Shown here one piece after another: positions 1,363-53,185 of a DNA stretch of 64,000 nt. Origin of the DNA: Pseudomonadota bacterium (GTDB taxonomy: Bacteria > Bdellovibrionota > UBA2428). The position numbers and the translations under genes were made by a program. The stretch spans positions 2,905-66,904 of the forward strand of contig JAGNHS010000006.1 in NCBI GenBank assembly GCA_018001635.1, given 5' to 3'. The notes beneath the pieces are model-generated. The model did no database searches and was not told the DNA's origin. It was given only the letters and a program-made list of their open reading frames with translations. Every line of letters begins with the position of its first letter. The first letter of the stretch is position 1.

Positions 1363-1425
1363 CTAGGCTTATTCGGCAGCCTAGCTTAGGAATTAGAGTA
1401 GAAATGGCGTCAATAAATTAGGGGT

Positions 1426-2013: not shown

Positions 2014-2033
2014 GAACTTAATAAAGTCGATCC

Positions 2034-3176: not shown

Positions 3177-3240
3177 AGTTTTATTTTGAGCTATGGCAAA
3201 ATTAACTACAAGTACGAATTTAGAAGTTTTTCACTTAAGA

Positions 3241-4209: not shown

Positions 4210-4292
4210 GGCTTCAAAGATTCTGGCAACTCAATAGCCCTTACATCCTGGACCCAAGGCCGCTGCCTAATAAATCTACGAAATTTAACCCT

Positions 4293-14105: not shown

Positions 14106-14168
14106 AATTAGGACTTATAAGAGGCTTTAGCTTTATTCAATGTGCTTTGTATCGTATTAAGGTTGGTC

Positions 14169-15353: not shown

Positions 15354-15463
15354 ATGTTTTGTTGTCTGAATCTGAATTTAAGTGGAGCAAACTTTTGGAA
15401 TATTTAAAATTCTGAGTTTTGTGCTTTGGTCTAATTTATTATTCAAATCTGCTAACCCCTTAA

Positions 15464-16048: not shown

Positions 16049-16355
16049 TACGTTTAGTAATAATGTAGCTAATTAAATGTGTCAAATAGAAATTAAAAAT
16101 AGCTAAGGGATTTTTTGGAAGATTGAAAAGAATCGCATGCAAATAGACCCAGAAGTTCTGAGCTGAAAGATGAGCCTAGGGCACATCTATGTAATAAATG
16201 GATCTATCTTTTAGGTTCGGGTATTAGTTTTTAGTATAATCTTCATACAATATTCACATTCAAATGCCCTTATAAGAAATTTAGACAGTTTTTTAACCAT
16301 AATTTAACTTGGTCTTATTGGGCTCTGAACCGATAATAGTAAGTCGGGGGCGTGA

Positions 16356-38142: not shown

Positions 38143-39591
38143 TTATTTTGTACCTGCCAGCTTAGGGAGTGAGTCGATTGTGGCTTGTGAAATCGCATAG
38201 CCCCTAGTTTGAGCAAGTCTTGCAGAAAGTGCCGATACGTAGGGCACCATATGTTTTCCAGGGCAATCATGACCATCATTTACGTTGAGGCAAACTCCCG
38301 TTAGGCAATGTCCTTTATCTCTATGAGTTCGTACGTGTTCTATAGGATATTTCATAGCGATTTGATCTTGAAGTTTTGTGAGGAGAGTTACAACTTCTTC
38401 AGGCACGGCATCTTTATCGTAATCTCCTGCAATTGAAACTCCGATAGATCGAGCATTGCAATCAGACGCGTGACAACCGCGATAACCTAATGGAGTTCCT
38501 TCAAAAATTTTCCACTCTCCTCGAGCATCCTTCTTAATCACAAAATGATAACCCAAATCTTTAAAAGGTTTTTGAAAGCGGTGAAACAAACTCATATCGA
38601 CAAGATTGGGTGATTGAGATCCATCGGTGTGGTGAATAACTATTTCATCGTAGGTGAGTTCTTGTTTTCTTTCCTGGAACCATTTTGGGTCCTGAGAGCT
38701 GACAGTCTGAGTGCTATATTTTCTTTTTTTTCCATTCACAGAGGAAAGAGCGCGATACTTTTGTCCATGGGCTTCCTCAGACCACCATTGTGCGCGAGAT
38801 ACAATATTGACATTTGAATTTGGGCTAAATCTTCGAGAGCTCACTTTGCTTTTGGCATTTTTAAGAGCGTTTCTGTCATTTTCAACAAGGGATAGAAATT
38901 TTGAATGCTGATTTCGGTAATCACTACTAGATAAAGAGAGCCATAAACTGTCTTCAACACATTTAAATTTTTTAGAAATATTGGAATTTTTTAAGGCTTT
39001 AATGAGGGCCAATTGAGTCTGCGTGACTTCTTGTTCTAAGGAGTCATTCTTAACAAGGGCTTCTTGGTCCATTCCGTGGGTTTTCATTTTTACAAAAAAT
39101 CCCTTTTGCGAATGACTTAAAAAGAAATGTTCTTGCTTTTGAACGGCATTCAAATAATTTATAAGACTCAAGTTTAAGCTACTAATGGCGGACTTTGTTC
39201 GACTCTTTTGAGGCCCATCGCTGAGCTTAAGTTTGAGTCCTTCGATGAAAGAAATTCTTTCATCAAGGTGATCTTTGTTGATGTATATTGCAAGTTGATC
39301 GAGATCATTGACTAGACTTGAATCAGGACAGGCACCCTTGTTAAAAATAAATTCTATAGGATCTGAATCAGTTTTAATATTATTGTTTGAACTTTGAGGA
39401 GTTTTTGTGTTTTGAATTTCTTCTCTTGAGGTTGCTTTTGTTGTTGTGTTTTTGTTGCTGTTCGCCGGATTCCTGTGAAAAATTCTACTAAAAAAACTAT
39501 CTGTAGCTGAAAAAACTGCTGGTATTGAAATTAAATTCAACAAACCTAAAATAAAAAAAACAAATGAGTACTGAGTTTTTTTCATGCCCAC
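38143..39591 (-). CDS. Exported N-acetylmuramoyl-L-alanine amidase (Amidase_2/PGRP domain) with long N-terminal region
   Basis: Signal peptide is present. The C-terminal amidase_2 blocks are IVIHHTDGS, LGYHFVIKKDARGEWKIFEGTPLGYRGCHA and NARSIGVSIAGDY. Confidence 0.8.
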   Translation of the reverse strand: MGMKKTQYSFVFFILGLLNLISIPAVFSATDSFFSRIFHRNPANSNKNTTTKATSREEIQNTKTPQSSNNNIKTDSDPIEFIFNKGACPDSSLVNDLDQLAIYINKDHLDERISFIEGLKLKLSDGPQKSRTKSAISSLNLSLINYLNAVQKQEHFFLSHSQKGFFVKMKTHGMDQEALVKNDSLEQEVTQTQLALIKALKNSNISKKFKCVEDSLWLSLSSSDYRNQHSKFLSLVENDRNALKNAKSKVSSRRFSPNSNVNIVSRAQWWSEEAHGQKYRALSSVNGKKRKYSTQTVSSQDPKWFQERKQELTYDEIVIHHTDGSQSPNLVDMSLFHRFQKPFKDLGYHFVIKKDARGEWKIFEGTPLGYRGCHASDCNARSIGVSIAGDYDKDAVPEEVVTLLTKLQDQIAMKYPIEHVRTHRDKGHCLTGVCLNVNDGHDCPGKHMVPYVSALSARLAQTRGYAISQATIDSLPKLAGTK

Positions 39592-39759: not shown

Positions 39760-42700
39760 TTATTTTTTCTTCTTATTCTCTGTTTTGAATAGTTTTCTAA
39801 GAAGTTTTACAACATTCACTTTTTCTTCTTCCTCGGAGATGAGTTGATAACCTACAAAGTTATCCATTTTAGCTTTCCCGATGAGGAATTGTCCAAGGGC
39901 ATCTTCTTCGCTGTAAGCTGTAAAGTTTATAGTTCCAAAGAATCGTGAATTGCCCATAACTTTTTCAATATTAGATTGAGCTGAATCGCTAAGATCTGCA
40001 ATGAGGTCGCCAAACATGAATGTGAAACGATCGTATTCAGAATCTGGAAATTTGGCTTGCACCTCTAAGGCTTTAGCCGCGCCCACTCCATAATCTGTGC
40101 CTCCACCCAGTTGGACTTTATAGAAGTCATTTTCATGGGCTTCGTCAAAATCATAAGCCACTCCGTCAAAAGCCACGTAGGTAAAAACGATGTTTTTATA
40201 TTTGTGTTTTAAAAGTGAGCGAATGTTGAAAATGATTTCCTTCATTTTCTCTACATATCCCATCATACTTCCTGATAGGTCAGAGATAATAGTGACATGG
40301 GCAGAGATGTCGGGGTCAGGTTGCTGCCGATGATTTTTAGAATGAATGTTTTTCTTCTGTAAAAAGTCCACGCCAACTTCGAAGGGGTCAAGCTCGGAGG
40401 TATCCTCGCCCTCTTCTTCTCGAAGGTTGATCACGCCGAGTCCGAGTTTAATGGCATCGCGAACAATTTTCTTAGCCACATAGGGTTTACGGTCTAAAGG
40501 TTGAGAGCCAACAAATATTTTACGCATTTGTTCGGTTTGTCCCTTGAGTGGTCTTAGGTTGGGTAACTCAACTTCATCCTTTATGAGGCTTTGATAAAGC
40601 TCTAATGGAATTTCAATATAAGAGGGGTCGCCACCGCCGCAGCCTTGACCATTTGAGGGTTTGCCTGTGTCACTATCCTCATCGCTACCTTCGTCGGGTT
40701 CTCCGTCGCCTTCACCATCACCGTCATTTCCATCGCCAGGCTGGTTTGAGGATTTTTCAACATAGTATTCCTTGTCCTTAAGACCTTGGGGCTGCAAAAG
40801 AAGTCCATCATCAGTTACAAAGGGATTGTTGTCTAAATCATTCACTTTTGAGAGTAATCTTTTTATTCCGTTTTGCGCACGTCGATCGAAGACTATTCCG
40901 CCAACTTCAGGCAGCACTTTGAGGCTATAGCCGCTGCCAGTTCGAGTGAGGCCACCATTGTTGGCCGCTTTTGAGAATGCCGCTAAAAATCTTTCTGCAA
41001 CTTTTTGGTGATATCGATTGAGTGCTTTGAGAATTCCGTGAGGAACTTCATTGAGTGCCATAGAACCTACAACATCGTTGATGTTTTTATAAATACTACC
41101 TAGAGGATCAATTTCAATTCCTTCTTTGTTTTTGAGAGTGCTGACAATTCCCTTTGGAACTTCAGTTTGATCGATATGGTAATCTATTAAAAATTCTCTT
41201 AAATTTTTAAATAGATGACCGTAAATTTCTTTGTCTACTGTAGATTTTTCTGCAGCCTCAGGAGTCCATTCTCTAAAGCTAGGCGTTTGATGAATTTCAA
41301 TTCCTTCTTCCCAAGAAGAATTACTATCCAATATTTCCATTTTTTTAAGAGTTGAGACGTTTATTTGTCCTTCAGGGTTGACTCTTATTTTCGCTCTAGC
41401 CAAGCGATATCCAATGACTTTCATTTTAGGTTTGAAACTAAACCAGTCCCACGTCACTTCTTTTATAACATCGATGATAAGTGTGGCTTCTAATTCAACA
41501 GTTTTCCTAAGTATTTTGGCCCAACTGAGTAGAGTAGGGGCTACAGTTTTTCTATTGATGGGTGTGAAGTAACCCATTTCATTACTCACAGATAATTTCG
41601 CAACATCATCTGTCTGATTGTGCAAATTATTCCAGACAACACGCGGATAGGCGTAGGAGAGGTTCCAGTCCTGTTGCACTTGATATCGAATACGTTCAGG
41701 ATCGTGAGTGATGACCTGATAGAGGGTGCCGTCCATATAATCTTGAGGAAGAGGAGCCCCTTGTTGAGCAAGTTGGAATTTTTCTTCGTTGCTGAATTTT
41801 TTAACTAGGGCTAGGTGCCTGTTTTTGATCCATTGATCAGTCAGCTTAGAAAAAATAAACATGACATTATTGCCAAGGTTTGGATTGTTTATGATTTCTC
41901 TAGCATAATTTATAAATTTTTGATCGCGCTCCATTCCTTCCAATTTAATGTTTTCAGGGCGCCTATTGAATTCTTCTCTAATTTCTCTCCAAATTTCGAG
42001 TCCGAGAAAATAAGGATTTGTGAGTGAGGGTCGCGCTACTCTTCCAGCGAGCATCCCAATTTCAGCAGCGTCACCAAAACTTCGTGCATAGTCGGGGTGA
42101 TGTGAGAAAATAATTTCCTCAACGAGCATGGCAAAACCTTCATTGAGTAACTTTGTGTTAACGGCACCAGGAATAAAGCGATTCATTTTTTCAAATTTTT
42201 TCGCCATTTCTAATTTCCAAGGTGCGATATCGCTTGGTAGTTCACTAACAAAGGCTTGAAGAAGGCTTACCGTTTGCTTTCCTGAACTCTGACTAGTCTG
42301 AACAAGGCCATCGCGCCATTGATTGAATCCTATGGGTCTGTCAGCCTTTAAGTCTTTAGGTTCTACATAGGCACCGCTCCAAACATCTTGTGCCATTTCA
42401 AGCGAAAGTAAATGGAAAAACCAATCCTCTACTTCTCGAGGATCTTCATATTTTCCAATATCTGTCATTAGTTCATCGAGCTCAACAGAAACTCCAACGC
42501 GATCATGGGAAGTTTTGTGTTTAAAGTAAGAATTCACATGGAAGAAATTATGGCCATAGACGTGAGCCAATATGTTCATGAATAATATGGGACTTAAGTT
42601 GCTCAAGTAATAGCTATGCTGTGTGCTGTGGCCCGAGAGTACAAATTCTAAAACCCCTTGAAGATTTCGTGCTTGATTGAAAATTGCGGCCCCGTCACTC

Positions 42701-42969
42701 CAGCTGCCGACAGGGTAACGATTCACCGCCGCCATTCCAGCCACTGAAGACGGATTGAGTAATTCTACAATATGTTTTTTTATGCCATTTAGAAGACCTA
42801 ATTTATCGGCGATGTCATGAACTTCAGCTAAACGTTTATGATATTCCGCTGCGTCAGGTTGGTTGTGCGAGTCCGCTATTAAGTGCTCTTGGCAGCTGAA
42901 AGAGTGTTGGGCAAAGATGAAGCTAAGGATACTGAGAAACTTTAGAGTGTTTAATCTAATAAAGCTCAT
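39760..42969 (-). CDS. Fusion protein: N-terminal SpoVR/YcgB-like domain plus C-terminal YeaH/YhbH (DUF444, vWA-like) domain, with signal-peptide-like N-terminus
   Basis: SpoVR block GVLEFVLSGHSTQHSYYLSNLSPILFMNILAHVYGHNFFHVNSYF (about 42540-42660). A Gly/Asp-rich linker (GDGNDGDGEGDGEPDEGSDEDSD) follows. DUF444 blocks are YIEIPLELYQSLIKDEVELPNL, PDPDISAHVTIISDLSGSM and QLGGGTDY. N-terminus is MSFIRLNTLKFLSILSFIFAQHS. Confidence 0.85.
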   Translation of the reverse strand: MSFIRLNTLKFLSILSFIFAQHSFSCQEHLIADSHNQPDAAEYHKRLAEVHDIADKLGLLNGIKKHIVELLNPSSVAGMAAVNRYPVGSWSDGAAIFNQARNLQGVLEFVLSGHSTQHSYYLSNLSPILFMNILAHVYGHNFFHVNSYFKHKTSHDRVGVSVELDELMTDIGKYEDPREVEDWFFHLLSLEMAQDVWSGAYVEPKDLKADRPIGFNQWRDGLVQTSQSSGKQTVSLLQAFVSELPSDIAPWKLEMAKKFEKMNRFIPGAVNTKLLNEGFAMLVEEIIFSHHPDYARSFGDAAEIGMLAGRVARPSLTNPYFLGLEIWREIREEFNRRPENIKLEGMERDQKFINYAREIINNPNLGNNVMFIFSKLTDQWIKNRHLALVKKFSNEEKFQLAQQGAPLPQDYMDGTLYQVITHDPERIRYQVQQDWNLSYAYPRVVWNNLHNQTDDVAKLSVSNEMGYFTPINRKTVAPTLLSWAKILRKTVELEATLIIDVIKEVTWDWFSFKPKMKVIGYRLARAKIRVNPEGQINVSTLKKMEILDSNSSWEEGIEIHQTPSFREWTPEAAEKSTVDKEIYGHLFKNLREFLIDYHIDQTEVPKGIVSTLKNKEGIEIDPLGSIYKNINDVVGSMALNEVPHGILKALNRYHQKVAERFLAAFSKAANNGGLTRTGSGYSLKVLPEVGGIVFDRRAQNGIKRLLSKVNDLDNNPFVTDDGLLLQPQGLKDKEYYVEKSSNQPGDGNDGDGEGDGEPDEGSDEDSDTGKPSNGQGCGGGDPSYIEIPLELYQSLIKDEVELPNLRPLKGQTEQMRKIFVGSQPLDRKPYVAKKIVRDAIKLGLGVINLREEEGEDTSELDPFEVGVDFLQKKNIHSKNHRQQPDPDISAHVTIISDLSGSMMGYVEKMKEIIFNIRSLLKHKYKNIVFTYVAFDGVAYDFDEAHENDFYKVQLGGGTDYGVGAAKALEVQAKFPDSEYDRFTFMFGDLIADLSDSAQSNIEKVMGNSRFFGTINFTAYSEEDALGQFLIGKAKMDNFVGYQLISEEEEKVNVVKLLRKLFKTENKKKK

Positions 42970-45900
42970 TTTTTCTCCTCAGGAATCAATAAATATTCGC
43001 AACGATCGCCGAATCCAGCATGATTTCTTTCCAATTCCGGAACCTTATCTCTTATGAGATCATTACCTTCTAAAAGTTGTGTGACGTATTCAACAGTAAG
43101 AGGTGAGAGTGGAGATTCTTCAGTTTTAAAGGCAAATTCAGCGAATTCAGCTCGGGTGCTGAGCGCGGGTTCGTCTATGATTTCTTCGAGCATTTTCATC
43201 ATGAAAACGTTGGCATTGTCCCAGGGTAGATTGGCAATGGCTTGGTCTATAGCCCAAAGAAAAATAATCGCTAAATCACTTGAGCTCAAATTTCTGTGGA
43301 GTCCTTTTTGTACTTCTTTGAGTTTGGGATTTAAAAAACCCTGATTAGAGACAAACATTTGAAAGAGGTCTCTTATTTTGTCTGTAGTGCTTGCAAATTC
43401 TTCACGCACTTCTTTTGAGTTTTTCATGGAATCAAGCCAAGCTTGAGAGTTGGATTCTTGAAATCCATTGGATTGATAAAATTTGTAAAACAAATTTTTC
43501 ATGAGCGATTCAATGTTGATAATTAAGCGGCTTATGTATTCACGTTGTCCTTCTTGTTCCTGAATTGAGCCTTTAATTTTTAAAAAATCATCTAGGGAAT
43601 CGCTCTCAAGAACGCTAGACGCGGGAAGTTTGAAAGGAATAACGGGTTTTGAATTATGATGAGCATCCATGAGGTCTTGGAATTCGGAAAGGAAACCAGA
43701 GTGGTTATTTATTTTTAATCGAACTGGGGATAGATCCAAATTCCAAAATCTTAATTCTGGACGATTTCTTAAGTTGAGATAGACTCCCGTGATGAGCGGT
43801 TTGAGGTAGTACATTTCATTTTGAAGACTCGCCCTAAAAAACTTATGATTTTGGATTGAGTTTATGAAATGATTATAAAAATTGATTCTAAAAGAGTTAG
43901 AATTAAATTCTGCGAAATCAAGTCTTCCGCGAAGGTTGTCAAAGGTGACTGGTTTTACAACAACATGTTTCTTAATTTGGTTTCTTAATGTGGTTGAATT
44001 TATAGTGGAACCACCTTCTTCCACTTGATGATCATCATTGTACCATTCATCAACATTCCAATCGTCTTTGAGGTCTTTGCTGTCATGGGTATCGCTTTTA
44101 GAGCTAGTCACATAATAGAGTGGAGCGGGGGCTAGAGAGTCATCTTTAGCTTCTGTGAATAGAGAGTTAGTAACGGGCATTAAAAAGTTTCGCGCGTGAG
44201 CTTTGGGGAAAATTTGTGCAATTTCAGAAAGAATATGTGGATTCACTAAAATCAGTTTGTTTGAAAGAGTTAATTCTTGGAGACTTCGAGCTCTGATTTT
44301 TGAAATCAAACCCGAGGCTTTGGCCTCACGTGGAAAATCACCAAAGTTAATGAGATCAGAAAAACGAGCTAAGATGGAGGGCTCATATTGAGCACCTTCA
44401 ACTTGTGAAAGTGCTGCAATGATTTGTGATTCAATAGAACTAGCATCATCGATATATTGATCTCTAATTTCACGATTGGATGCAGGGTTGATGGTTACAA
44501 ATAAAGAGATATTTCTAACAGGAATTTCGATGGTCATTTTATCTTCAAGACGAGAGACTCTGACCAAGTTGTTGTTCAGTAAGTTTTGGATATAAGACAT
44601 AACTCGACTGAGAACGTTGGCGTTCTTAGCTTTGTGAAGATCGTCAATAAGTATGAAACCTCGGTAGCCGAGAGGAAGTGATAAGAAATTGTCTAAGTGT
44701 TTCAGTGCGTCTTCAACATATAAACTTTTTCCAGTGGCTTCTTCTTTTTTATCTACCAAATCTTCTACTTTTAGGAAAAAGGCTTGAGCATTTTCATCTA
44801 AAGGTCTGTTGAAGTCGTAAACTTTTATATCGAGTAATTGGATGAGCTTCTCAAAGAAAAAAGTTTTTCCTAAACTTGTTTCACCGAAAAATACGGCTGA
44901 TGAGGGAATTTGCTTTGAACTATCGGACCCTTGAGTTTGCGAAAGAATAAGCCTGAAAATTCTTTCTTTGAGATCCAGTTGACCAGCATATCCTAGTTTT
45001 GTGAGATCCACTGCGGCTCGAGCGGTGTCTTTAATTTTATGAAGAACGTCTTCGGGTTCAAGGGATTTATAATTTAAGGGGATGGGGAAAACTTTGGCTA
45101 AAAATCTTTCTACATAGTTTTCGTCAATCACTCGACTTCTTCTGAGTTTATGGTCGTCGACTAATGATTTTCTAAAAATGGAATAGGAGCGTACAAAGGC
45201 TTCGATGGGTTCTTGATTGAGTGAATTGGCAACAGCTTCAATTCGATTGGCTAAAAATTTGGTGATGTTCAAAAACGGAGCGCTGTTTCTTTCGGCGCCA
45301 GATTCGTTTCCATTGTATCGAAATGAGTAATTCAGAGTTCTAATGTCTTCTCGATAGAATAAATTTCTCAAAATGTTAGAGCGGTGCTCTACGCTTGGAT
45401 ATTCAAGTCGAACTATTTCAAAATCTTTTTGAAGATCCATAAAATGCGACTCAAGGCCTAAATCTTTTTCTAAATCTTCGATTTGTTCAGGAGTGGCTAC
45501 AATAATTTCTGAAACGCTTGGGGTAGCTTCATCTCTTAAGCGCCATTGCTTTTTTAATTTAGGTTGGATTCTTCTACCTTCGGAGGCCAACCACCACATG
45601 ATGTGAGGGAAAATTGTATTGGGTTTGTCTATGTCGCTACGAGAAGAACTGTTTCCATCTTTGTCACTGCCTTCGTTGGGGCTGTTGGCGCTCGATTGAG
45701 CCTCGGAAGCCGTTTCAGCTAATAGCTCAGTTTTTTTCATGGCCGCAGGATCGCTAATTCTAAAAGGTTTGATGTCGCTTTTTTCTCCAACTAGTGGACG
45801 TTCATTGCGTAAAAGGTCGCTCGCATCTGCTAAAAGAACAACACTATTTTCTTGGCTGAGTCTTCTCATGGCGTCTAGATTGCCAAAGATTTCTTCTTGA

Positions 45901-48900
45901 TGAACTTTTCCACCTTGTGGATATCTGAATATTGAAAGATGGGGATTTCGAAAATTCCAGGAAGTGTTTAAATTTGGATTTCCATTAGTATCTCTTTCTA
46001 GGGCCACGTTGTAGCGACTCGACCAATGAGTCATTAAAAAGCGAAGCATGAGTTTTTTGATGTTTTCAGGGACAACTATGATTCTATGTTTAGGTTTTTC
46101 AGGTTTTTTAGAGAGCTCACTCAAAATGGGTCTTAAATTTGGGAAAACTTGAAGATCGTCTGAGGTGAGCGCACTCACCGACATTCTTCTGATGTCAGGA
46201 GTGGATCTCGGAGTGTTCGGAGGCCAGTTGTACCATTGTGAGGTTAAGAATCTTGCATCGATTTCAAATAGACCTTTGTCTACTAAGCCTGCTTTGAATT
46301 CATGAGGATGAGCTTCTTGAAGTTTTAAAAGTTTTTTAGGAGTTGTTAGAACAACAGTTGTCACAGATTTGAAGGAGTCTGATGGAGAGCTTAAATCTTT
46401 AAGGTGTCGTCCTTTTCCTTCCGTGGCTAAGAGAAAAAGTCCAGAAAGTTTATGGGGCGAAGAGGGATCGTAAATGTGATCAGACGAGGTTGAGCGTGCT
46501 GATTCGGAGAAGCTTTCTTCATCGAGTTCATCGCCACCTTGGTTTGTTTCTACAACTTCTGGTTCATCTTCTTCATGCTTGTGTTTAGTTCCTTTGTTTC
46601 TGCCGTCGTTCTCTTCTTCATCCTCTTCGTCATCTTCTGTCTTTTTGTTTGAAGCTTTAGACTCGGGATCATTATTAGCGCTTACGGTTTCGATTCCCAT
46701 TTGTCTTTCAGAGTCGCTTGAGGCGTAGTCGAGTATGCTAAACGAGGATGCACTGTCACTATCTTCAGAGTTTTTGCCGTCTGTTTCTAATATGAAAGTT
46801 TGTAAAAGCTCGTCGGAGCCTGCAAATAGTACGTTTTGTGTTGTTGATTCAGAGGCAAGTTTTAATTCCTTGCGCATTTCCCGAGCATCGGATTGATGGT
46901 CAAAGAAGTAGAGTTCAAAATCGTTTCCACCGGGTTTCCATTTAAGGGACCAACCTGTTTTTTTGTTATCGAGTTTAAGGAGCATGAGGTTATAAAAGTT
47001 GGCGTAGTCTTCGTCAGACACTACAAGGAAAGTTTTTTTACCTTTTTTAGAAGGATCTACGACTAAGGAATCTAGGTACTCGTCTAAGAGTGGGTAAAGT
47101 GGTCCTTTCCCCCCAGGTCCGAAATTTAAATCTTTATAAGTTTTAGCTTGCTCAGCTTCATTTCCGTCGAGTGCTTTGGAAAGTGTTGAATTAATTGAGC
47201 GTAATCCAGTGGAGGATGAAATGCTCCATCGACTTCCTATCCAAAATAAGCGACCCTCTTTTTCGTTTTCCTGAACAATTCTTTCTTTAAGGCGAATATT
47301 AATATTTTCTTTTGAGGGAACAACAAGTTTAGAGACGTAATTAAAACATCTCATTTTATATTTTGCAGAAAAATAATCTTCATTGGGAGTGTCAACCCAA
47401 TACAGGGCACCATTGCCATCGGGAAGCACTCGGTCGCTAATGCGATTGGCGGTCACATAACTTTTTGTAAGCCAACCTGAGGAATCTGGAATGTTGTTGG
47501 CTGTGAATTCAATTTTTCCAGCTTTGAGTTGAGATTGAATTTCGTATCCTAGCAGATACACGCCACCCGTGTTCTGACGAGTCCTTTTGAGAAAGAGCAT
47601 AACGTAAATGCTGTTAGCGTGCTTTCTTAAACCTTTAAAAACTCTTACACCCTCAATTTGAGAGAATGAAAATGGAAGCTCTCGTGTGGCGAAGAAAGTG
47701 TTCTTTATGTTTTCTCCAACTCGACCCTCGTAATTAAAAAGGGTCACAAGATTGAATTTTCCTTCTAAATTAGGTTGCTGAGAGTTGTTTGGAAGCATTC
47801 CAAACAAATGGATTTTGAAGGCTTCCAATTGCTTCGAAGATTCGCTGAGTGGAAGATGAATGTCAGTGGTGTATAGAACAGCACGAATGGAATCTTTGGA
47901 AATGGATGTTCTTGAATTTTTCTTTGTCTTTGTTTTTGAGCTATTGGAATAGATAAGCTGTCCGGGAATGAATGATGAATCATCTTTGTTTAAATGCGAT
48001 GTTGAATCAGCAGGTGTTTCGTGTCGATCTGCGGAATGCGTATCCTCAAGATAGACTCCGGTTTTTTCATTGAGTTGTGATTGTTTGTCGTTATTGAATT
48101 CTCGATAAACAACATGGGGGCTCATGATTACGGGAAACTCGTTTTTAGCTTGAAGAAATACTGTTTTCTTTTTGGGGTCGCTTTCAGAGACGTTAAGATA
48201 GGCGGTGACTCGCAGTCCTCCGGGATTTTTTTGAGAATCACTTCTATAGGTTTTGGGCCCCACGCGAGGAGTGCTGTTGTCGAAAACTAAACCAAGGTTT
48301 TCCACATTCTTGATTCGTAATTCTAGTTCTTCTTTGCTGAAACTGTACGTATTCGATATAACCTGCATGTCTTTAACGCTGACGTGACCCATGGATTCTT
48401 CAAGTTCAATCGCGAAAGTTCCCCCTCCAGGATAATATTGAGTTTTTCCTGATAAAATTAAATAATGTTTTTTGTAAACCGCACCAGAAATGAGTTCGTC
48501 ATCAGGGGTGTTGTCTGAAAATCCAAAAATGGGTGCTGATTTTCTTTTTTCGATTTTAGGTTGTGGAAGATCAAAGGACTCTAGAATTATAACGTTGTCG
48601 TTGTTGAAAGGGTCGAATTTGAGTTTGGTAAATTGTTCTTGAACTTCGACAACCTGAATACTTCTGTTTCTGGATTTTAGTCTTAACAGAATGCTTTTAT
48701 CCAATGAGAATAAAACCTCAACAGAGGAATCGTTTGAGAGAGATCGAGTTAAAAACTTTTTATTGTCTTGATCCCAGCTGAGTCTTCCTTTTTGGGGTGG
48801 AGTACCTTCATATTGAAAGGAGAGCCCATCTCCTAAGGGTTCAAAGAATTGAGTGACTCCCGAAATGGCCATGTTAGAAACTTGAGGTTCGGGTCTTTTC

Positions 48901-49844
48901 TCGAGGACATCCACTAAGGGAGGATTAGTGAGCACACTCAGTTTAAGAGATTTTCCAGAATTAATATCGATGTCTCTATATCGACTTGTAAAAGTTTTTT
49001 TATCGATTTTGGAATTGGGGTCGAGATAATCCAATAAAAGCTTCACTTTTTTTAACCAAATATCAACGAGAGGGTGCTCTTTGTCGTTTTTCCATTTTTC
49101 ATAAACTGTTTTTAGAAGATAGGGGGAGTATGCTTTGTCGGGTGAATAGTCGGCAAAAAGTCTTATGAGTCCTTGGTCTGTGGGGTGAAATCTATAATCG
49201 AGGAGCACCGGTTCAGATATTTTAAATTCACCTGTTTCGATGCCTCCGTTTTTAACAATAGCAAAAGTGATTCCGTCAGAACCCATTTGAGGAATGCCTT
49301 GCTTAACTGAGATGATATACATACACGAGTTGTCTACAGGGTATTGTACAATCGTGATGTCTTTGGGGTCCTTTATGTTTTCAAGATAAATTTTACGTTT
49401 CGTGAGAGGATCGATGATTGGGACGGGAGTGGCAAATTTGTTGGGTATTTTTTGGGATTCATTAGCGCCAATAATGAGTGAGCTGGCTGCTTTTTTTTCT
49501 GAAGTGTTTTTGTTAACGATATAAATTTGTCCATCGAGAATGACTAAGGCTTCTTGATTTCCTTGTTGAGTGACAGGAGCTAAGAGTACAAAAGTTTCAG
49601 CGGATCGCTTATTCACGCCAAGCACTTCTTTTTGAATCAGTGGAGTAGAGTTTTCAGCTCCAGTATTAAAAAAATAAATTCCCTTTTTTTTGCCATTGAG
49701 TTCAGTGTTGAATACCAACTCGTATAAGGCTCTTGCATTATGAGGATGTGGAAAAATGAAAGACCCCTCGTCGGCCGCGCGTAAGGCTCCACTTTGTCCG
49801 ACAAGTAGGGCGGCAAGGGCAATATGTTTGAGGAGGTGTCTCAT
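42966..49844 (-). CDS. Giant (2292 aa) protein: signal peptide, unassigned N-terminal region of about 880 aa, acidic linker, and Clp/Hsp100-like AAA+ modules (last one with intact Walker A/B)
   Basis: Uninterrupted 6.9-kb ORF with signal peptide MRHLLKHIALAALLVGQSGALRA|AD. Walker A is FFGETSLGKTFFFE (about 44863-44886) and Walker B is GFILIDDLHKA (about 44641-44665), followed by NISLFVTINPAS. An upstream Clp D1-like block is IIVATPEQIEDLEKDL...FEIVRLEYPSVEHRSNILRNLF. ATGA overlap with the downstream gene. Confidence 0.8.
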   Translation of the reverse strand: MRHLLKHIALAALLVGQSGALRAADEGSFIFPHPHNARALYELVFNTELNGKKKGIYFFNTGAENSTPLIQKEVLGVNKRSAETFVLLAPVTQQGNQEALVILDGQIYIVNKNTSEKKAASSLIIGANESQKIPNKFATPVPIIDPLTKRKIYLENIKDPKDITIVQYPVDNSCMYIISVKQGIPQMGSDGITFAIVKNGGIETGEFKISEPVLLDYRFHPTDQGLIRLFADYSPDKAYSPYLLKTVYEKWKNDKEHPLVDIWLKKVKLLLDYLDPNSKIDKKTFTSRYRDIDINSGKSLKLSVLTNPPLVDVLEKRPEPQVSNMAISGVTQFFEPLGDGLSFQYEGTPPQKGRLSWDQDNKKFLTRSLSNDSSVEVLFSLDKSILLRLKSRNRSIQVVEVQEQFTKLKFDPFNNDNVIILESFDLPQPKIEKRKSAPIFGFSDNTPDDELISGAVYKKHYLILSGKTQYYPGGGTFAIELEESMGHVSVKDMQVISNTYSFSKEELELRIKNVENLGLVFDNSTPRVGPKTYRSDSQKNPGGLRVTAYLNVSESDPKKKTVFLQAKNEFPVIMSPHVVYREFNNDKQSQLNEKTGVYLEDTHSADRHETPADSTSHLNKDDSSFIPGQLIYSNSSKTKTKKNSRTSISKDSIRAVLYTTDIHLPLSESSKQLEAFKIHLFGMLPNNSQQPNLEGKFNLVTLFNYEGRVGENIKNTFFATRELPFSFSQIEGVRVFKGLRKHANSIYVMLFLKRTRQNTGGVYLLGYEIQSQLKAGKIEFTANNIPDSSGWLTKSYVTANRISDRVLPDGNGALYWVDTPNEDYFSAKYKMRCFNYVSKLVVPSKENINIRLKERIVQENEKEGRLFWIGSRWSISSSTGLRSINSTLSKALDGNEAEQAKTYKDLNFGPGGKGPLYPLLDEYLDSLVVDPSKKGKKTFLVVSDEDYANFYNLMLLKLDNKKTGWSLKWKPGGNDFELYFFDHQSDAREMRKELKLASESTTQNVLFAGSDELLQTFILETDGKNSEDSDSASSFSILDYASSDSERQMGIETVSANNDPESKASNKKTEDDEEDEEENDGRNKGTKHKHEEDEPEVVETNQGGDELDEESFSESARSTSSDHIYDPSSPHKLSGLFLLATEGKGRHLKDLSSPSDSFKSVTTVVLTTPKKLLKLQEAHPHEFKAGLVDKGLFEIDARFLTSQWYNWPPNTPRSTPDIRRMSVSALTSDDLQVFPNLRPILSELSKKPEKPKHRIIVVPENIKKLMLRFLMTHWSSRYNVALERDTNGNPNLNTSWNFRNPHLSIFRYPQGGKVHQEEIFGNLDAMRRLSQENSVVLLADASDLLRNERPLVGEKSDIKPFRISDPAAMKKTELLAETASEAQSSANSPNEGSDKDGNSSSRSDIDKPNTIFPHIMWWLASEGRRIQPKLKKQWRLRDEATPSVSEIIVATPEQIEDLEKDLGLESHFMDLQKDFEIVRLEYPSVEHRSNILRNLFYREDIRTLNYSFRYNGNESGAERNSAPFLNITKFLANRIEAVANSLNQEPIEAFVRSYSIFRKSLVDDHKLRRSRVIDENYVERFLAKVFPIPLNYKSLEPEDVLHKIKDTARAAVDLTKLGYAGQLDLKERIFRLILSQTQGSDSSKQIPSSAVFFGETSLGKTFFFEKLIQLLDIKVYDFNRPLDENAQAFFLKVEDLVDKKEEATGKSLYVEDALKHLDNFLSLPLGYRGFILIDDLHKAKNANVLSRVMSYIQNLLNNNLVRVSRLEDKMTIEIPVRNISLFVTINPASNREIRDQYIDDASSIESQIIAALSQVEGAQYEPSILARFSDLINFGDFPREAKASGLISKIRARSLQELTLSNKLILVNPHILSEIAQIFPKAHARNFLMPVTNSLFTEAKDDSLAPAPLYYVTSSKSDTHDSKDLKDDWNVDEWYNDDHQVEEGGSTINSTTLRNQIKKHVVVKPVTFDNLRGRLDFAEFNSNSFRINFYNHFINSIQNHKFFRASLQNEMYYLKPLITGVYLNLRNRPELRFWNLDLSPVRLKINNHSGFLSEFQDLMDAHHNSKPVIPFKLPASSVLESDSLDDFLKIKGSIQEQEGQREYISRLIINIESLMKNLFYKFYQSNGFQESNSQAWLDSMKNSKEVREEFASTTDKIRDLFQMFVSNQGFLNPKLKEVQKGLHRNLSSSDLAIIFLWAIDQAIANLPWDNANVFMMKMLEEIIDEPALSTRAEFAEFAFKTEESPLSPLTVEYVTQLLEGNDLIRDKVPELERNHAGFGDRCEYLLIPEEKK

Positions 49845-49862: not shown

Positions 49863-52463
49863 TTATTTTTTGTCGTGCTTGTTGACGTGCTCCACTAAGA
49901 ATCGAAGCGCTTGCACGAAAGATCTCTCGTTGTATCCGTATCTTTCCAAGTTGCTGAGTATCTTTTGCCCAGCCGTTTGAGTTTCAGTGGCCACGGATCT
50001 TCCTTGCATGAAATCAAGGAGGCTTTGGTAGCTGTTAGTTTTTAAGTTCTGACTCATCAACCAATCAGAAATAGCTTTTTCAAGCTTAATCCACATGGGG
50101 AGGGGTGATCCGTCAGTATTATGAAGCGCTAAATTGGCAACATAAGCTTGGAGATCTGGGGGATTAAGATCGTCGCCCCAGCGTTTTCTAAAGGCCTTTT
50201 TAATTTCAGTGAGTCTATCAAAATTGATGGCAGTAGGTATGTCGCCTTTTGATTTAGTGTGGTGTGTGGCTTTAGAGTCTTGCGCTAAGTGTGAAATTTC
50301 CGAAGTGACTGCATCGTAAATACTGCGCACTTTATTGGTGTCGTTAGCAATAATCGAGTTCACATCGTTCATGAGCTTAGGAAGTATGAGCTCTGCTGCA
50401 ATTCTCTCGGCGAGTTCGAGCCATTTAGCGTATTCAGGGCGTTCCTTTTGAAATTGGTTTTCGTGAAGGGTGAGTCTAAAGGCGTCTTTTATTTCTACAG
50501 GAGTTAAAGTGTTTGAATGTCCGGGAGATTGTGCGAGTTCAAGGGCCTTTTTAAAGACCACTTCAATATCGCGTTGTCCAATTCCATTATCGCCTTCATT
50601 GAGAAGAGCTTCCTTTGAGAATTCCGTTAAAGCCGCTAGAACTTCTTGATTCTCAACAACTTCATCTCCTGTGATAATTCGAAGACGGTCAATTGGGTCG
50701 GTGAACCATCTTAGATCGGGACGTGTGATACGAGTGAGAATGTTGGCGTCTTTGAGTTTATCGATATTTGTTTCAAGCGAAGAGCCTGCGGCAATGCATC
50801 CCAAGAAATATAGCGAATAGGGTGAAATATCGACAAAGGAACTTTTGCTAGCGCTGATTTCAGCTGGCGAATCAATTTTAACTCTTACGGCGTAATGACC
50901 CTCAGGGCCTGAAATATTTCCATTGCTGTCGGGTTCTGCATAAATTTCCTTGATGAGGGGTGAATTTGAGCTTTCGTTTAGTGTGGCGAGATTTTTGTGT
51001 TCTGTTGAATCCAATTTGCGTGCACTAAAGTTATTGGGTTTGAGAGTGAGTAAAAGTGCAAGCTCTCTCCATCTTGGATGGAGGAGGTTTTTCATGGCAA
51101 TATGTTGTAAGCGAGATAGAAGAGCGTCGGTGTCCATGCGTTTTTTGGAATCTGCAATGGAACTATAGTTTGCAGAAAACACATTAAAGGTGTCCATCGC
51201 TAAAGCGGGGGTGTCTGAACCTTTGGCGACGCCTTCTTGTAATACAGAAAGTAGGAAGTGGAGAACTACGGGGTCGTTTCGAGTAACGTCGTCCCAAATG
51301 ATCATGGAGCCATCGTTTTGAGAGAGGGGTCCGTTAAAATGGAAGCCGAGAGTGTTATTGGCGCCTTTAATTCTTGCGGCTACGTTGGCAGTTCCAATTA
51401 AAGAAGAGGTGTCGGGGGCTTCTTCCATAGGACGAATAATGGGATCGCGATTGGAGGCAAGGCTGATGTCTTTTCTTGCAATACCCACAAAATTTTCAAA
51501 TATGGCTAAATAGTCAGCTACGGTGAGAGAAGTTGCTTTTGTGGCTTTTAAAATATGTTTTTTATAAAAAGGAATGAGAAATTCTCTTAGGATATCTTCT
51601 GCATGAGAATCGCGGGCGACAGCTTGGCCAGGATTTCTTTCGTAGAAATCACCAATGTCGAAACCTAACATTTTAGAGGCGGTGGCACCTAGAGTTTTTG
51701 CGTAAGCCACTTTGAGTTCGGTGGGAAGTAGGCTGAAGGGACTTCTTTGAAGGCTTGTAACATTAAGGCGATCGCTATCTTTGACTAAGAATTGATCGAG
51801 TCTTTGACCTAATGAAGGATCAGTTTGTTTTATCATGTCCAAATTTTTCCAAAAATAGGTGTATTCCTTGAATAGAGGATCTCGAACTGAGAGGTGGGCT
51901 AGGGCATATCGAATGACGTATTCGAGAACTGTTTTTCCAGTTCCTGGAGGTCCCTTTAAAAGTGGTCCTTTACTTCCGCGCATACCTTGTGCGGCTTCGG
52001 AGATGATTTTTGCCAAGCTCGAGCTAGCTTCATATTGGCCTACGAGAAAAAGTCCGCCAGTTGCGGGCAAGGCATCATGATAGACTTTGGGAACATTATA
52101 ATATTGGTGCTTGTAGACGGGGTCTAAAACTCGGCGATATCCAAAATTATTCAAGACCGCTAATTGTTTTTGATCAGCATTCATTAAAAGTAAGGGATGC
52201 TCTTTTATGAGATCGGGTAATTTTGAAAAAGGATACTCTACGGCGTATTCTTCGGTGCCGGCAATAGCTAGTTGAGCCACTGTTTCGGGCACTAAAAGAG
52301 TTGAGCATAATTTTGGATCAACATGAAAACTTTTAGGAGTGCTAGTTGTTGATTTAGCCGCGGATGCTTTTTTGCTTTCTGCTGCAAATGAAAAATTTTC
52401 TAAGCTCATTAAAAAAATAACGACGTGTGTAATTTTTAGAATTGTAGGTAGGCTTTTTCTCAT
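49863..52463 (-). CDS. PrkA/YeaG-like AAA+ protein (866 aa) with signal-peptide-like N-terminus
   Basis: PrkA-type N-terminal AAA blocks are SLAKIISEAAQGMRGSKGPLLKGPPGTGKT (Walker A about 51932-51955) and DGSMIIWDDVTRNDPVVLHFLLSVLQEGVAKGSDTPALAMDTFNVFSANYSS. A long helical C-terminal region follows. N-terminus is MRKSLPTILKITHVVIFLMSLENFSFA|AE. Confidence 0.75.
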   Translation of the reverse strand: MRKSLPTILKITHVVIFLMSLENFSFAAESKKASAAKSTTSTPKSFHVDPKLCSTLLVPETVAQLAIAGTEEYAVEYPFSKLPDLIKEHPLLLMNADQKQLAVLNNFGYRRVLDPVYKHQYYNVPKVYHDALPATGGLFLVGQYEASSSLAKIISEAAQGMRGSKGPLLKGPPGTGKTVLEYVIRYALAHLSVRDPLFKEYTYFWKNLDMIKQTDPSLGQRLDQFLVKDSDRLNVTSLQRSPFSLLPTELKVAYAKTLGATASKMLGFDIGDFYERNPGQAVARDSHAEDILREFLIPFYKKHILKATKATSLTVADYLAIFENFVGIARKDISLASNRDPIIRPMEEAPDTSSLIGTANVAARIKGANNTLGFHFNGPLSQNDGSMIIWDDVTRNDPVVLHFLLSVLQEGVAKGSDTPALAMDTFNVFSANYSSIADSKKRMDTDALLSRLQHIAMKNLLHPRWRELALLLTLKPNNFSARKLDSTEHKNLATLNESSNSPLIKEIYAEPDSNGNISGPEGHYAVRVKIDSPAEISASKSSFVDISPYSLYFLGCIAAGSSLETNIDKLKDANILTRITRPDLRWFTDPIDRLRIITGDEVVENQEVLAALTEFSKEALLNEGDNGIGQRDIEVVFKKALELAQSPGHSNTLTPVEIKDAFRLTLHENQFQKERPEYAKWLELAERIAAELILPKLMNDVNSIIANDTNKVRSIYDAVTSEISHLAQDSKATHHTKSKGDIPTAINFDRLTEIKKAFRKRWGDDLNPPDLQAYVANLALHNTDGSPLPMWIKLEKAISDWLMSQNLKTNSYQSLLDFMQGRSVATETQTAGQKILSNLERYGYNERSFVQALRFLVEHVNKHDKK

Positions 52464-52608: not shown

Positions 52609-53148
52609 ATGCGAGTCGTTTTTGTTTTTTCTTTTTTATGGGCTGCGCTTCTTTATTCTGCCACAACGAGTCAAGATTCTGCGAGCACTATATATTTTAA
52701 GGTGCTCAAGGGTTTTGATGTAGAAAAAAAGAAATCAAATGCTGAAGTAGACGCATTAGTCGGCAAAAAAATTCGCATTCCTGGATTTATGGTTCCTCTT
52801 GAATATAAATCTCAAAAGGTGACTGAGTTTTTGTTAGTACAGTCTCTTCCCTCTTGCATTCACGTACCTCCCCCCTCTCCTAATCAAACCATTATGGTGA
52901 AGATGAAGGATAAAAAAACAGTGTCTTTGAGTATGGATCCCATTTGGGTGACAGGAATCTTAAAATTGGTCAAACAAGACAAATATACATTTGGTGATGC
53001 CGTTTATAGCATTGAGGGCGAGTCTTCTGCTCCTGTAGATTCAAAAGACTTTAATAAAGTGGGTTTATTTATGGGAGATCAGGTGGATATGGCTCCTTTA
53101 GAGGAGAATCCTTTTGGTGGTGAGAGTAAAACTAAGAAAAAGAAATAG
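52609..53148 (+). CDS. Exported DUF3299 domain protein
   Basis: Signal peptide is present. The DUF3299-like core is KKIRIPGFMVPLEYKSQKVTEFLLVQSLPSCIHVPPPSPNQTIMVKM...PIWVTGILK. Confidence 0.65.
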   Translation: MRVVFVFSFLWAALLYSATTSQDSASTIYFKVLKGFDVEKKKSNAEVDALVGKKIRIPGFMVPLEYKSQKVTEFLLVQSLPSCIHVPPPSPNQTIMVKMKDKKTVSLSMDPIWVTGILKLVKQDKYTFGDAVYSIEGESSAPVDSKDFNKVGLFMGDQVDMAPLEENPFGGESKTKKKK

Positions 53149-53185
53149 AAATAGTTTAAGAAATAGACTTAAAGGGTACGACATT

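Follow-up and report, generated by a model that had tools for sequence, protein, structure and literature searches.

The protein families PrkA/YeaG, YeaH/YhbH (DUF444) and YcgB/SpoVR make up a trio that ranks among the most widespread in bacteria, and their biochemistry is poorly understood. The genes yeaG, yeaH and ycgB show conserved cofitness, with r>0.7 in six bacteria (10.1101/072470), and Bacillus subtilis PrkA depends on its Walker A motif and was reported to degrade casein slowly and in an ATP-dependent manner (PMC9512850). Bdellovibrio bacteriovorus HD100 has a separate canonical operon, bd0228-0231 (PMC5430801). In a preprint of July 2026 (10.64898/2026.07.20.739708), YeaH and YcgB are still described as uncharacterised, and our structure searches found no solved structure of any PrkA/YeaG, YeaH/YhbH or YcgB/SpoVR member. 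In the canonical arrangement, 38 of 57 loci have the DUF444 and SpoVR genes side by side, often with an overlap.

Here, we analyse a gene cluster in a 64,000-nucleotide stretch of a bdellovibrionotal contig (the window) that appears to combine the same three families as the canonical trio of Escherichia coli (yeaGH and ycgB), B. subtilis (prkA-yhbH and spoVR) and B. bacteriovorus (bd0228-0231). As in these systems, SpoVR and DUF444 are full-length, the MIDAS and the E/H/H/E/Y residues of SpoVR are present, and a probable PrkA-family gene lies in the same row. The cluster differs in that SpoVR and DUF444 form a single chain, in reversed order and with a 140-aa connector, and in that the PrkA protein is very divergent, scoring about the Pfam cut-off. 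A second AAA+ protein of 1800-2300 aa usually stands between PrkA and the fusion, the partners carry signal-peptide-like N-termini and a terminal Cys, two SpoVR His are lost, and in the sampled set the fusion clade occurs in Bdellovibrionota and Bradymonadales only. The fusion gene is organized as follows.

39760..42969, minus strand: fusion ORF, stop codon at 39760-39762, NCBI MBP7843660.1 'SpoVR family protein'
41455..42864, minus strand: complete SpoVR/YcgB module with a predicted zincin-like fold, residues 36-505
41035..41454, minus strand: inter-module connector of 140 aa, residues 506-645, outside both hhalign matches
39763..41034, minus strand: complete DUF444/YeaH module, residues 646-1069, from hhalign to E. 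coli YeaH
40624..40737, minus strand: Gly/Asp-rich disordered loop native to DUF444, residues 745-782, pLDDT <50 at 741-778
40555..40569, minus strand: ELPNL motif, residues 801-805
39763..40362, minus strand: vWA domain, residues ~870-1069, with complete MIDAS (D897-x-S899-x-S901 at nt 40267-40281, T958, D988)

A sequence-only reading had proposed one ORF at 39760..42969, and these coordinates proved exact: the minus strand holds a single, uninterrupted frame of 3210 nt encoding 1069 aa. The motifs quoted at the time are all present, with ILAHVYGHNFFHVNSYF at residues 133-149 and PDPDISAHVTIISDLSGSM at 884-902, alongside ELPNL and GGGTDY (residues 955-960). A Pfam profile search, suggested as a check, placed PF04293 SpoVR on residues 100-397 (46.6 bits, cut-off 27) and PF04285 DUF444 on residues 867-1064 (60.7 bits, cut-off 27), both above their gathering scores; both families were also matched by 45/45 members of the fusion family. 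Profile-profile alignment (hhalign) matched residues 36-505 to positions 18-500 of the 510 residues of E. coli YcgB (probability 100%, E 2.4e-40), a shorter SpoVR part than the first ~690 aa assumed initially, and residues 646-1069 to positions 15-426 of the 427 residues of YeaH (E 6.5e-42). The DUF444 module is thus full-length: it has the helical part at its N-terminus, the Gly-rich loop, the ELPNL helix and the vWA domain with MIDAS. TIGR02877 scored 62 over residues 745-1059, far under its equivalog cut-off of 468, which marks the fusion, as judged by profile score, as a DUF444 family member and not an equivalog of sporulation YhbH. That the two proteins are usually encoded by separate genes agrees with the 58 unfused loci examined, and the DUF444 gene comes first in 57 of these, so that the order in the fusion is indeed the reverse of the usual one.

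A Gly/Asp-rich segment at about 40640-40750 had been taken as the fusion linker. Its position was close to the observed 40624-40737, but its role was not as supposed: DUF444 homology begins at residue 646, and the segment therefore lies inside DUF444. Residues 745-782 align to YeaH's own Gly-rich stretch GGGGGSGSGQGQ, and a comparable stretch stands just before ELPNL in seven of the ten canonical DUF444 proteins that we inspected (no LPN match was obtained for the remaining three, and these were not displayed). The alignment within DUF444 and the presence of the same stretch in canonical proteins rule it out as the linker. In the AlphaFold2 model, the connector at residues 506-645 consists of a long beta-hairpin sheet that begins within the SpoVR end (strands 490-508, 513-530, 536-547 and 564-567), followed by helices at 573-635; most of residues 500-550 have a pLDDT of 82-97, and the rest of the connector ranges lower, at 52-96. 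An HMM built on the connector ('mid') matched fusion proteins only, which makes it specific to the fusion clade, and the connector is a conserved junction that is predicted to be structured.

Adjacent SpoVR and DUF444 genes could have been merged artificially by a missed stop codon or frameshift in the low-complexity region, as the Gly/Asp-coding DNA at 40624-40737 is of an indel-error-prone kind, and a related fusion has, in a cluster at 90% (cluster 7), split members of 616 aa and 546 aa on one contig. Yet this stretch is internal to DUF444 anyway, and the actual junction is a conserved, folded segment. Comparison with independent assemblies, which had been proposed as a check for a stop or frameshift in the linker, revealed neither and confirmed a natural fusion. 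Full-length copies of the 1069-aa ORF number at least four and come from NCBI, JGI and Logan. An orthologue in an independent Bacteriovoracaceae assembly (L007) shares 91% DNA identity with no indel over 3210 nt, and the codon changes between the two show a strong synonymous excess (231 synonymous, 39 non-synonymous) that includes the Gly/Asp region (9 and 2, respectively). Diverged full-length homologues are numerous: at 50% identity, over 100 clusters share the ~1000-1280 aa fusion architecture, 128 of 232 representative matches have E<1e-30 and most matches are 1000-1280 aa long, and six fusion clusters occur in the 90% database. The number of homologues, the repeated 1069-aa copies and the synonymous-biased comparison lead us to reject an assembly or sequencing artefact, for which we see hardly any chance, and the full-length SpoVR-DUF444 fusion is almost certainly genuine.

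Fusion genes were found in Bacteriovoracaceae, Bdellovibrionales, Pseudobdellovibrionaceae, Oligoflexia and Bradymonadales, with all loci deriving from MAGs or metagenome contigs. Each half forms one clade in neighbour-joining trees, which carry no support values, and the two topologies are congruent. The fusion clade appears in these trees as a deep, diverged paralogous clade. The fusion would have arisen once, in the ancestor of the clade now present in Bdellovibrionota and Bradymonadales, and it has since been under purifying selection.

AlphaFold2 modelled the whole chain with a pLDDT of 86.2 and a pTM of 0.85. This confident model fits a packed two-module unit and makes the Rosetta-stone argument of the sequence-only reading, that SpoVR and DUF444 proteins associate physically, a reasonable one. 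The SpoVR module was assigned a zincin fold from the predicted model, in which three elements stand out.

42646-42648, minus strand: invariant E108 of the SpoVR module
42550..42564, minus strand: HxxxH motif H136-V-Y-G-H140 on helix 127-146, invariant in 70/70 sequences, putative metal ligands
42130..42144, minus strand: N276-E277-G-F-A280 on helix 273-289, with an invariant Glu as candidate third ligand

All 70 fusion-family sequences, down to ~23% identity, retain E108, H136, H140, E277 and Y320, and the equivalents of these residues are also invariant in canonical SpoVR, where the full set of invariants is E95, H122, H127, E283, H290, H315 and Y335 in E. coli numbering. The fusion clade lacks two of these canonical His, with H290 replaced by Q/M/E and H315 by hydrophobic residues. 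In the DUF444 half, D897, S901 and D988 are invariant in the fusion family. The SpoVR module resembles zincins (DUF885, M32, M1, M4 thermolysin, YbeY) in that a long helix carries two His spaced by one helical turn and a later helix an invariant Glu; its LLNEGFA may resemble the 'WLNEGFA' motif of M1, and its GVLEF may resemble 'GAMEN'. It differs from them in that HVYGH is without the Glu that follows the first His in HExxH (the canonical SpoVR motif is HxxxxH) and in that the candidate Glu lies 137 residues downstream. Sequence similarity of the fusion to zincin metallopeptidases was not detectable, and neither a Pfam scan of 45 members nor a PDB profile search linked it to a peptidase family.

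From the predicted fold and its conserved residues, we lean, by a narrow margin of confidence, towards the SpoVR module being a metal-dependent hydrolase. The missing HExxH Glu and the loss of two His mean that it could also be non-catalytic or act on a non-peptide substrate. A non-catalytic pseudo-zincin scaffold, with the fusion serving AAA+ motors as a large adaptor or as their receptor for substrates, would agree with these same features, with the absence of sequence matches to peptidase families and with the report that B. subtilis PrkA degrades casein slowly on its own (PMC9512850). We consider such a scaffold rather unlikely, as five residues invariant in 70 sequences as well as in canonical SpoVR are more than a scaffold needs.

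The fusion gene is the last of a cluster that starts with a divergent PrkA AAA+ gene, followed by a gene for a giant AAA+ protein of 2292 aa.

49863..52463, minus strand: divergent AAA+ protein of probable PrkA/YeaG family, 866 aa, signal-peptide-like N-terminus, Cys53
51930-51953, minus strand: Walker A GPPGTGKT of the PrkA-like protein, residues 171-178
42966..49844, minus strand: giant protein, 2292 aa, AAA+ core, signal-peptide-like N-terminus
44862-44885, minus strand: Walker A of the giant AAA+ core, G1654..K1660-T1661
44640-44645, minus strand: Walker B of the giant AAA+ core, D1734-D1735
42999-43001, minus strand: invariant terminal C2282 of the giant protein

The end of the giant gene and the start of the fusion gene share 4 nt (ATGA), and the cluster is translationally coupled. 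The window's PrkA-like protein scored 26.6 bits with PF06798 (cut-off 25) and 20.5 bits with PF08298 AAA_PrkA (below the cut-off of 25); 8/8 of its orthologues matched PF08298 at E<0.01 (best 1.1e-7), and BLASTP against E. coli YeaG returned colinear pieces. Its invariant residues are G176, K177, D391, N432 and R451, and the Walker A/B, sensor and Arg residues are intact in both AAA+ partners. One PrkA-like orthologue weakly matched the bpMoxR model, and matches to AAA_5 were faint. The order PrkA-like, giant, fusion recurs in ten loci (the window, L001, L003, L006, L007, L012, L014, L015, L089 and L091), and in two others (L008, L090) the PrkA-like gene directly precedes the fusion gene with no giant in between. 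At L089, a gene for an AAA plus Peptidase_M41 protein with a signal peptide directly follows the fusion gene. Among the sampled genomes, the cluster was found only in MAGs of Bdellovibrionota and Bradymonadales. The fusion probably works with the PrkA-like AAA+ protein.

MoxR-type AAA+ proteins are known to pair with vWA-MIDAS proteins, as in NorQ-NorD, CoxD-CoxE, CobS-CobT, RavA-ViaA and CbbQ-CbbO, where the vWA domain serves to dock clients or effectors to the ATPase. The cluster likewise has an AAA+ gene adjoining a gene for a vWA protein with complete MIDAS, and Pfam matched VWA_CoxE in 14/45 and CobT_C in 5/45 fusion-family members. However, the AAA+ protein appears to be of the PrkA family and not a MoxR in the strict sense, the vWA protein is a DUF444 that has the ELPNL helix and a long N-terminal part, and the vWA domain is covalently joined to a zincin-like module. 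FtsH-type AAA+/zinc-peptidase machines also combine an AAA+ motor with a zincin-type module, whereas here the motor and the zincin-like module sit on different proteins, which the vWA domain presumably bridges. We propose a polypeptide in which a predicted Sec-type signal peptide is followed by the SpoVR/YcgB module, the structured 140-residue connector and the YeaH/YhbH (DUF444) module. The vWA domain of DUF444 would dock onto an AAA+ ATPase through its complete MIDAS, and the SpoVR module, zincin-like and with invariant HxxxH and Glu, would be the likely effector. With adaptor and effector in one chain, the fusion would hard-wire the one to the other, and AAA+ motor(s) and zincin-like module would act as one machine. 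We give this reading as a whole, a fused vWA adaptor and zincin-like effector that serves AAA+ motors and is exported, a probability of roughly 65%.

Export is suggested by the N-terminus of the fusion.

42895..42969, minus strand: predicted Sec-type signal peptide, residues 1-25, with R5/K10, FLSILSFIFA and small residues SFS at -3/-1
42892..42894, minus strand: Cys26 directly after the signal peptide, Cys in 66/70 family members

By a hydrophobicity and charge heuristic, 86/110 fusion-family members have signal peptides, as against 1/64 canonical SpoVR and 0/54 canonical DUF444 proteins, and E. coli YeaG, YeaH and YcgB are negative. The same layout, with a K/R n-region, a hydrophobic core of 10-15 residues, small residues at -3/-1 and then acidic residues, is found, across 13 loci, in 11 PrkA-like, 9 giant and 12 fusion sequences. 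The cluster proteins are extremely Cys-poor with one conserved terminal Cys each, and no such terminal cysteines were present in six canonical homologues examined. Together, signal peptides and terminal cysteines suggest a machine assembled outside the cytoplasm, possibly disulfide-linked.

The periplasm lacks ATP, which fits poorly with two AAA+ ATPases that seem active being exported by Sec. The hydrophobic N-termini could instead be uncleaved membrane anchors or buried, in a complex that functions at the cytoplasmic face with ATP, like canonical YeaG/YeaH/YcgB. The intact Walker A/B, sensor and Arg residues in both AAA+ partners imply ATP use, we know of no periplasmic AAA+ machine, and the signal-peptide call is heuristic. 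A cytoplasmic complex nevertheless seems doubtful to us. The N-termini are classical, and the positive-inside rule places the body of the protein outside; their layout is common to three cluster proteins and most of the fusion family but nearly absent in canonical homologues. Single terminal Cys in Cys-poor proteins are typical of an oxidising compartment, and AlphaFold2 modelled the first 20-30 residues of the fusion as a detached, low-confidence helix. By its N-terminal features, the fusion is likely exported. It is a bolder and speculative step, which we think improbable at present, that Bdellovibrionota and Bradymonadales Sec-export the complete ATP-dependent machine of PrkA-type AAA+, giant AAA+ and zincin-like/vWA fusion, with its subunits joined by terminal disulfides and at work beyond the cytoplasm of the producing cell, for instance inside prey with ATP. 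If true, the PrkA/YeaH/SpoVR module would have given rise to an extracytoplasmic AAA+ system, and SpoVR would be the long-missing hydrolytic partner of PrkA.

The Rosetta-stone argument also applies, indirectly, to the canonical YeaG/YeaH/YcgB system. The transfer to cytoplasmic proteins is indirect because the fusion clade is diverged and has signal peptides, an altered site and an extra AAA+ partner. The fusion might even be a lineage-specific accident, and YeaH and YcgB elsewhere might not touch but only share PrkA. Such an accident would suit a deep diverged paralogue that has signal peptides, an added connector, a changed site in SpoVR and one more AAA+ partner, and a species, B. bacteriovorus HD100, that keeps its separate canonical operon bd0228-0231 (PMC5430801). 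We judge it quite unlikely, however: both modules are complete end to end, the two halves co-diverged in the neighbour-joining trees, the whole-chain model is confident at pTM 0.85, and the canonical genes, adjacent and often overlapping in two thirds of loci (38/57), are tightly cofit (10.1101/072470).

Bdellovibrionota include lineages known for predation. In such predatory-type bacteria the fusion is conserved beside a divergent PrkA ATPase, and its partners, to judge from their N-termini, look exported. With export signals on every partner, the ATP source of an exported AAA+ machine becomes a question in these lineages. For the trio at large, an ancient, selected fusion would be direct genomic evidence that YeaH and YcgB function as one unit, and it offers a single-chain template for the YeaH/YcgB interface. 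A zincin-like SpoVR together with a vWA/MIDAS DUF444 would lead to a scheme of motor, adaptor and metallohydrolase, which could bring together the conflicting accounts of PrkA as a kinase and as a protease.

The gene under study encodes SpoVR/YcgB and DUF444 (YeaH/YhbH) in a single chain. Its limits had been placed exactly by the sequence-only reading: the ORF is one unbroken frame, and every motif quoted in that reading is found in it.

39760..42969, minus strand: fusion ORF, 1069 aa, uninterrupted
Fusion residues 133-149: SpoVR hallmark, ILAHVYGHNFFHVNSYF
Fusion residues 801-805: ELPNL
Fusion residues 884-902: PDPDISAHVTIISDLSGSM
Fusion residues 955-960: GGGTDY

Both expected domains exceed their Pfam cut-offs of 27 bits, SpoVR (PF04293) with 46.6 bits over residues 100-397 and DUF444 (PF04285) with 60.7 bits over residues 867-1064. 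The NCBIfam YhbH model also aligns, to residues 745-1059, with a score far under its equivalog cut-off. By profile membership, the fusion is a member of the SpoVR and DUF444 families. An identical protein is deposited at NCBI as 'SpoVR family protein' (MBP7843660.1), and the JGI label of the fusion carries the names of both COGs.

Judged from sequence comparison, the fusion gene is genuine and not an assembly artefact. A frameshift or stop in independent assemblies had been named as the mark of an artefactual merger; the orthologue in L007, a separately assembled MAG of a close Bacteriovoracaceae relative, lacks any indel across 3210 nt at 91% DNA identity. Codon differences between the two genes are 231 synonymous and 39 non-synonymous, with ratios of 30:13 in the connector between the modules and 9:2 in the Gly/Asp-rich stretch. 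The 90% cluster of the fusion holds at least four full-length copies of 1069 aa from NCBI, JGI and Logan. HMMER, run exhaustively over 1.84 billion representatives, recovered 232 relatives (128 with E<1e-30), mostly 1000-1280 aa long, and both Pfam families were matched in all 45 family members scanned. A profile of alignment A1, searched against a 5.8-billion-protein database, returned nothing beyond the same six proteins at E<=1e-5, a threshold that we judged too strict for a database of this size.

Module limits were derived by profile-profile alignment of 70 fusion-family sequences (alignment A3) with canonical-protein alignments. Fusion residues 36-505 correspond to E. coli YcgB 18-500 of 510 (probability 100%, E 2.4e-40) and residues 646-1069 to E. 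coli YeaH 15-426 of 427 (probability 100%, E 6.5e-42). Each canonical protein is matched nearly end to end, and the fusion therefore joins two complete proteins. Two details of the sequence-only reading have to be revised accordingly: the SpoVR part, put there at about 690 aa, has YcgB homology over residues 36-505 only, and the Gly/Asp-rich segment taken for the fusion linker aligns instead to YeaH's own GGGGGSGSGQGQ stretch.

Fusion residues 506-645: true junction (connector)
Fusion residues 745-782, nt 40624-40737: Gly/Asp-rich stretch, by alignment a native DUF444 loop

A Gly-rich stretch lies just ahead of the ELPNL helix in seven of ten canonical DUF444 proteins inspected from several phyla, the other three having no LPN match and not being displayed. 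On this alignment evidence, the stretch is a loop belonging to DUF444 and not a fusion linker. Conservation of the connector is confined to the fusion clade. In the AlphaFold2 model the connector folds into long beta-hairpins and, after them, helices; pLDDT is mostly 82-97 for residues 500-550 and lower, 52-96, for its remainder. The whole-chain model reached a pLDDT of 86.2 and a pTM of 0.85; pLDDT fell below 50 in three segments only (residues 20-31, 616-619 and 741-778).

For the distribution scan, one genome per GTDB species was taken and all ORFs were scanned with HMMs. Single-ORF fusions occurred only in Bacteriovoracaceae, Bdellovibrionales, Pseudobdellovibrionaceae, Oligoflexia and Bradymonadales MAGs and in one unclassified MAG. 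Separate SpoVR and DUF444 genes were found at 58 loci of other phyla, with DUF444 first in 57, which bears out the earlier remark that the fusion order is the reverse of the usual one. The lone exception comes from two Vampirovibrionales-like MAGs (L016/L017) with the order PrkA, SpoVR, DUF444, which matches the order within the fusion; here the genes are unfused and the proteins lack signal peptides. In neighbour-joining trees calculated without support values, each half of the fusions, SpoVR or DUF444, falls into a single clade separate from all canonical sequences, and the two clades share their inner branching order. Monophyly of each half and the matching topology indicate, at the level of these trees, one ancient fusion event followed by co-divergence of the halves. 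Bdellovibrio bacteriovorus HD100 has an unfused canonical operon, bd0228-0231 (PMC5430801), which suggests that the fusion cluster is a paralogous system and not a replacement of the canonical one.

The row at L016:6746-17097, also present in L017, comprises PrkA, SpoVR (749 aa), DUF444 (474 aa), a second PrkA paralogue (890 aa) and a ClpP-family protease (404 aa); the position of the ClpP gene beside this paralogue could be relevant to the debate about PrkA as a protease. In cluster 7 (P0161, P0162), a related fusion, a 40-kb JGI contig encodes split products, a 616-aa DUF444 and a 546-aa SpoVR protein, in place of one protein of about 1140 aa, the cause being a frameshift in the sequencing or a secondary split.

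Two ORFs on the same strand precede the fusion gene.

42966..49844, minus strand: giant ORF, 2292 aa, upstream of the fusion
49863..52463, minus strand: PrkA-like ORF, 866 aa

The ATG of the fusion overlaps the stop of the giant ORF by 4 nt, and 18 nt separate the PrkA-like ORF from the giant ORF downstream of it. The order PrkA-like, giant, fusion is seen at ten loci; in two others (L008, L090) the PrkA-like gene directly precedes the fusion with no giant between. The PrkA-like protein matches PF06798 with 26.6 bits (cut-off 25) and AAA_PrkA with 20.5 bits, below its cut-off of 25, the latter profile being matched by all eight PrkA-like orthologues, and BLASTP aligns it with E. coli YeaG in pieces of colinear order. 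Walker A G176 and K177, D391, N432 and R451 are invariant. From these matches the 866-aa neighbour can be classed as a divergent PrkA/YeaG, a borderline member of the family. The giant has an AAA_22-like core near residues 1650-1890, with invariant Walker A, Walker B and Arg residues, and a start resembling a signal peptide. No Pfam family matches it above cut-off, and a homologue search in the 5.8-billion-protein database gave a single match (P0152) and no deeper alignment; where found, the giant always adjoins the fusion gene. We also considered the giant as a PrkA paralogue and rejected the idea, since hhalign against the PrkA-like protein revealed generic AAA+ similarity only (probability 24.6%). 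PADLOC found no defence-system match among the three cluster proteins, and promoter and terminator counts were not above those of shuffled sequence.

Other AAA-domain proteins occur near related fusion genes. L090 encodes a 1545-aa AAA-domain protein (659-5296), 2.3 kb upstream of the PrkA-like/fusion pair, whose sole Cys lies 7 residues from the C-terminus, a pattern as in the giants. In L089 the fusion gene is followed immediately by the gene (13360-17181) of a 1273-aa protein whose domains are AAA and Peptidase_M41 (FtsH-like); its N-terminus resembles a signal peptide, and it has a Cys 6 residues from the C-terminus. Downstream of the fusion in the window (38143-39591, minus strand), a gene conserved beside it only in L007 encodes a 482-aa protein that looks secreted and has an Amidase_2 (N-acetylmuramoyl-L-alanine amidase) domain. 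Divergent from the PrkA-like gene (52609-55711, plus strand) are genes for a DUF3299 protein, a ZrgA-family zinc-uptake protein, an ABC ATPase and a MacB/FtsX-type permease, a row resembling a ZrgABCDE-type zinc import system; its position beside a cluster with a putative metal-dependent module may be coincidence.

Whole-chain fold searches, with Foldseek concordant, found the vWA domains of the C-terminal part only and nothing on SpoVR, for which a separate model of residues 32-645 was needed. The MIDAS is complete, with D897, S901 and D988 in 70 of 70 sequences, S/T899, and T958 in 62 of 70; the VWA_CoxE profile matches 14 and CobT_C 5 of 45 family members. In the whole-chain model, the long helix 127-146 carries H136 and H140, a later one (273-289) carries E277, and E108 sits on a strand, 28 residues ahead of H136; all four residues are invariant. 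Three points qualify the zincin reading. The HVYGH motif lacks the catalytic Glu, no peptidase profile matched any of 45 members, and of two His invariant in canonical SpoVR (E. coli numbering), H290 is replaced by Q, M or E and H315 by hydrophobic residues in the fusion clade (fusion positions 284 and 308; site listed with window 42130-42144). Since these two His are replaced and the canonical HxxxxH is shortened to HxxxH, the putative metal site is remodelled. No solved structure of SpoVR, DUF444 or PrkA came up in PDB sequence searches, which matched only 3rag, weakly, as a vWA-like protein, and generic Walker A sequences.

In the AAA+/vWA pairs NorQ-NorD, CoxD-CoxE, CobS-CobT and RavA-ViaA, the vWA/MIDAS protein docks onto the AAA+ motor. 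By analogy, in the best-supported model the vWA/MIDAS end of the fusion would dock onto one or more AAA+ motors, the zincin-like SpoVR module would be the effector, and the fusion would unite adaptor and effector in a single chain. This model fits the tight cofitness of yeaG, yeaH and ycgB (10.1101/072470) and the weak proteolysis of Bacillus subtilis PrkA, which requires ATP hydrolysis and has no recognisable protease domain (PMC9512850); a B. anthracis study calls PrkA an AAA+ ATPase (PMC13001217). Compared with the canonical unfused YeaG/YeaH/YcgB trio, the window cluster differs in the fusion itself, its gene order, the connector, the extra giant AAA+ protein, the apparent signal peptides and terminal Cys of its proteins, and the altered SpoVR site. 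Fused proteins are already in databases under automatic names; in literature searches, neither the fusion nor a complex of YeaH with YcgB nor a zincin-type fold of SpoVR was mentioned in any paper.

The N-termini of 11 PrkA-like, 9 giant and 12 fusion sequences have a basic n-region, a hydrophobic core of at least 10 residues, small residues at -3/-1 followed by acidic ones. Scored by a simple hydrophobicity and charge criterion rather than a trained predictor, 86 of 110 fusion-family members passed, as compared to 1 of 64 SpoVR and 0 of 54 DUF444 proteins of canonical type. Across the window, L001-L015 and L089-L091, the cluster proteins are strikingly Cys-poor (three Cys per 2292 residues in the giant), and each keeps one positionally conserved Cys.

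42892-42894: fusion C26, shortly after the signal peptide, in 66 of 70 members
52305-52307: PrkA-like C53, shortly after the signal peptide
42999-43001: giant C2282, 6-18 residues from the C-terminus across orthologues

The C-terminal Cys is present in nine of ten giant sequences examined. It is absent in L091, where the N-terminal Cys of the fusion is also missing, the single case of joint loss. Cys26 was considered as a lipoprotein Cys and rejected: in most orthologues it lies 5-25 residues past the likely cleavage site and there is no lipobox. The terminal Cys pattern suggests intermolecular disulfides, and together with the N-termini we read it as pointing to export of the cluster proteins. 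The main difficulty is that two apparently active ATPases would carry Sec signal peptides, with no obvious ATP source in the periplasm. Possibly the N-termini serve as anchors and are not cleaved as signals; the proteins might also act where ATP is present, e.g., in the prey cytoplasm, or their nucleotide sites might serve another role.
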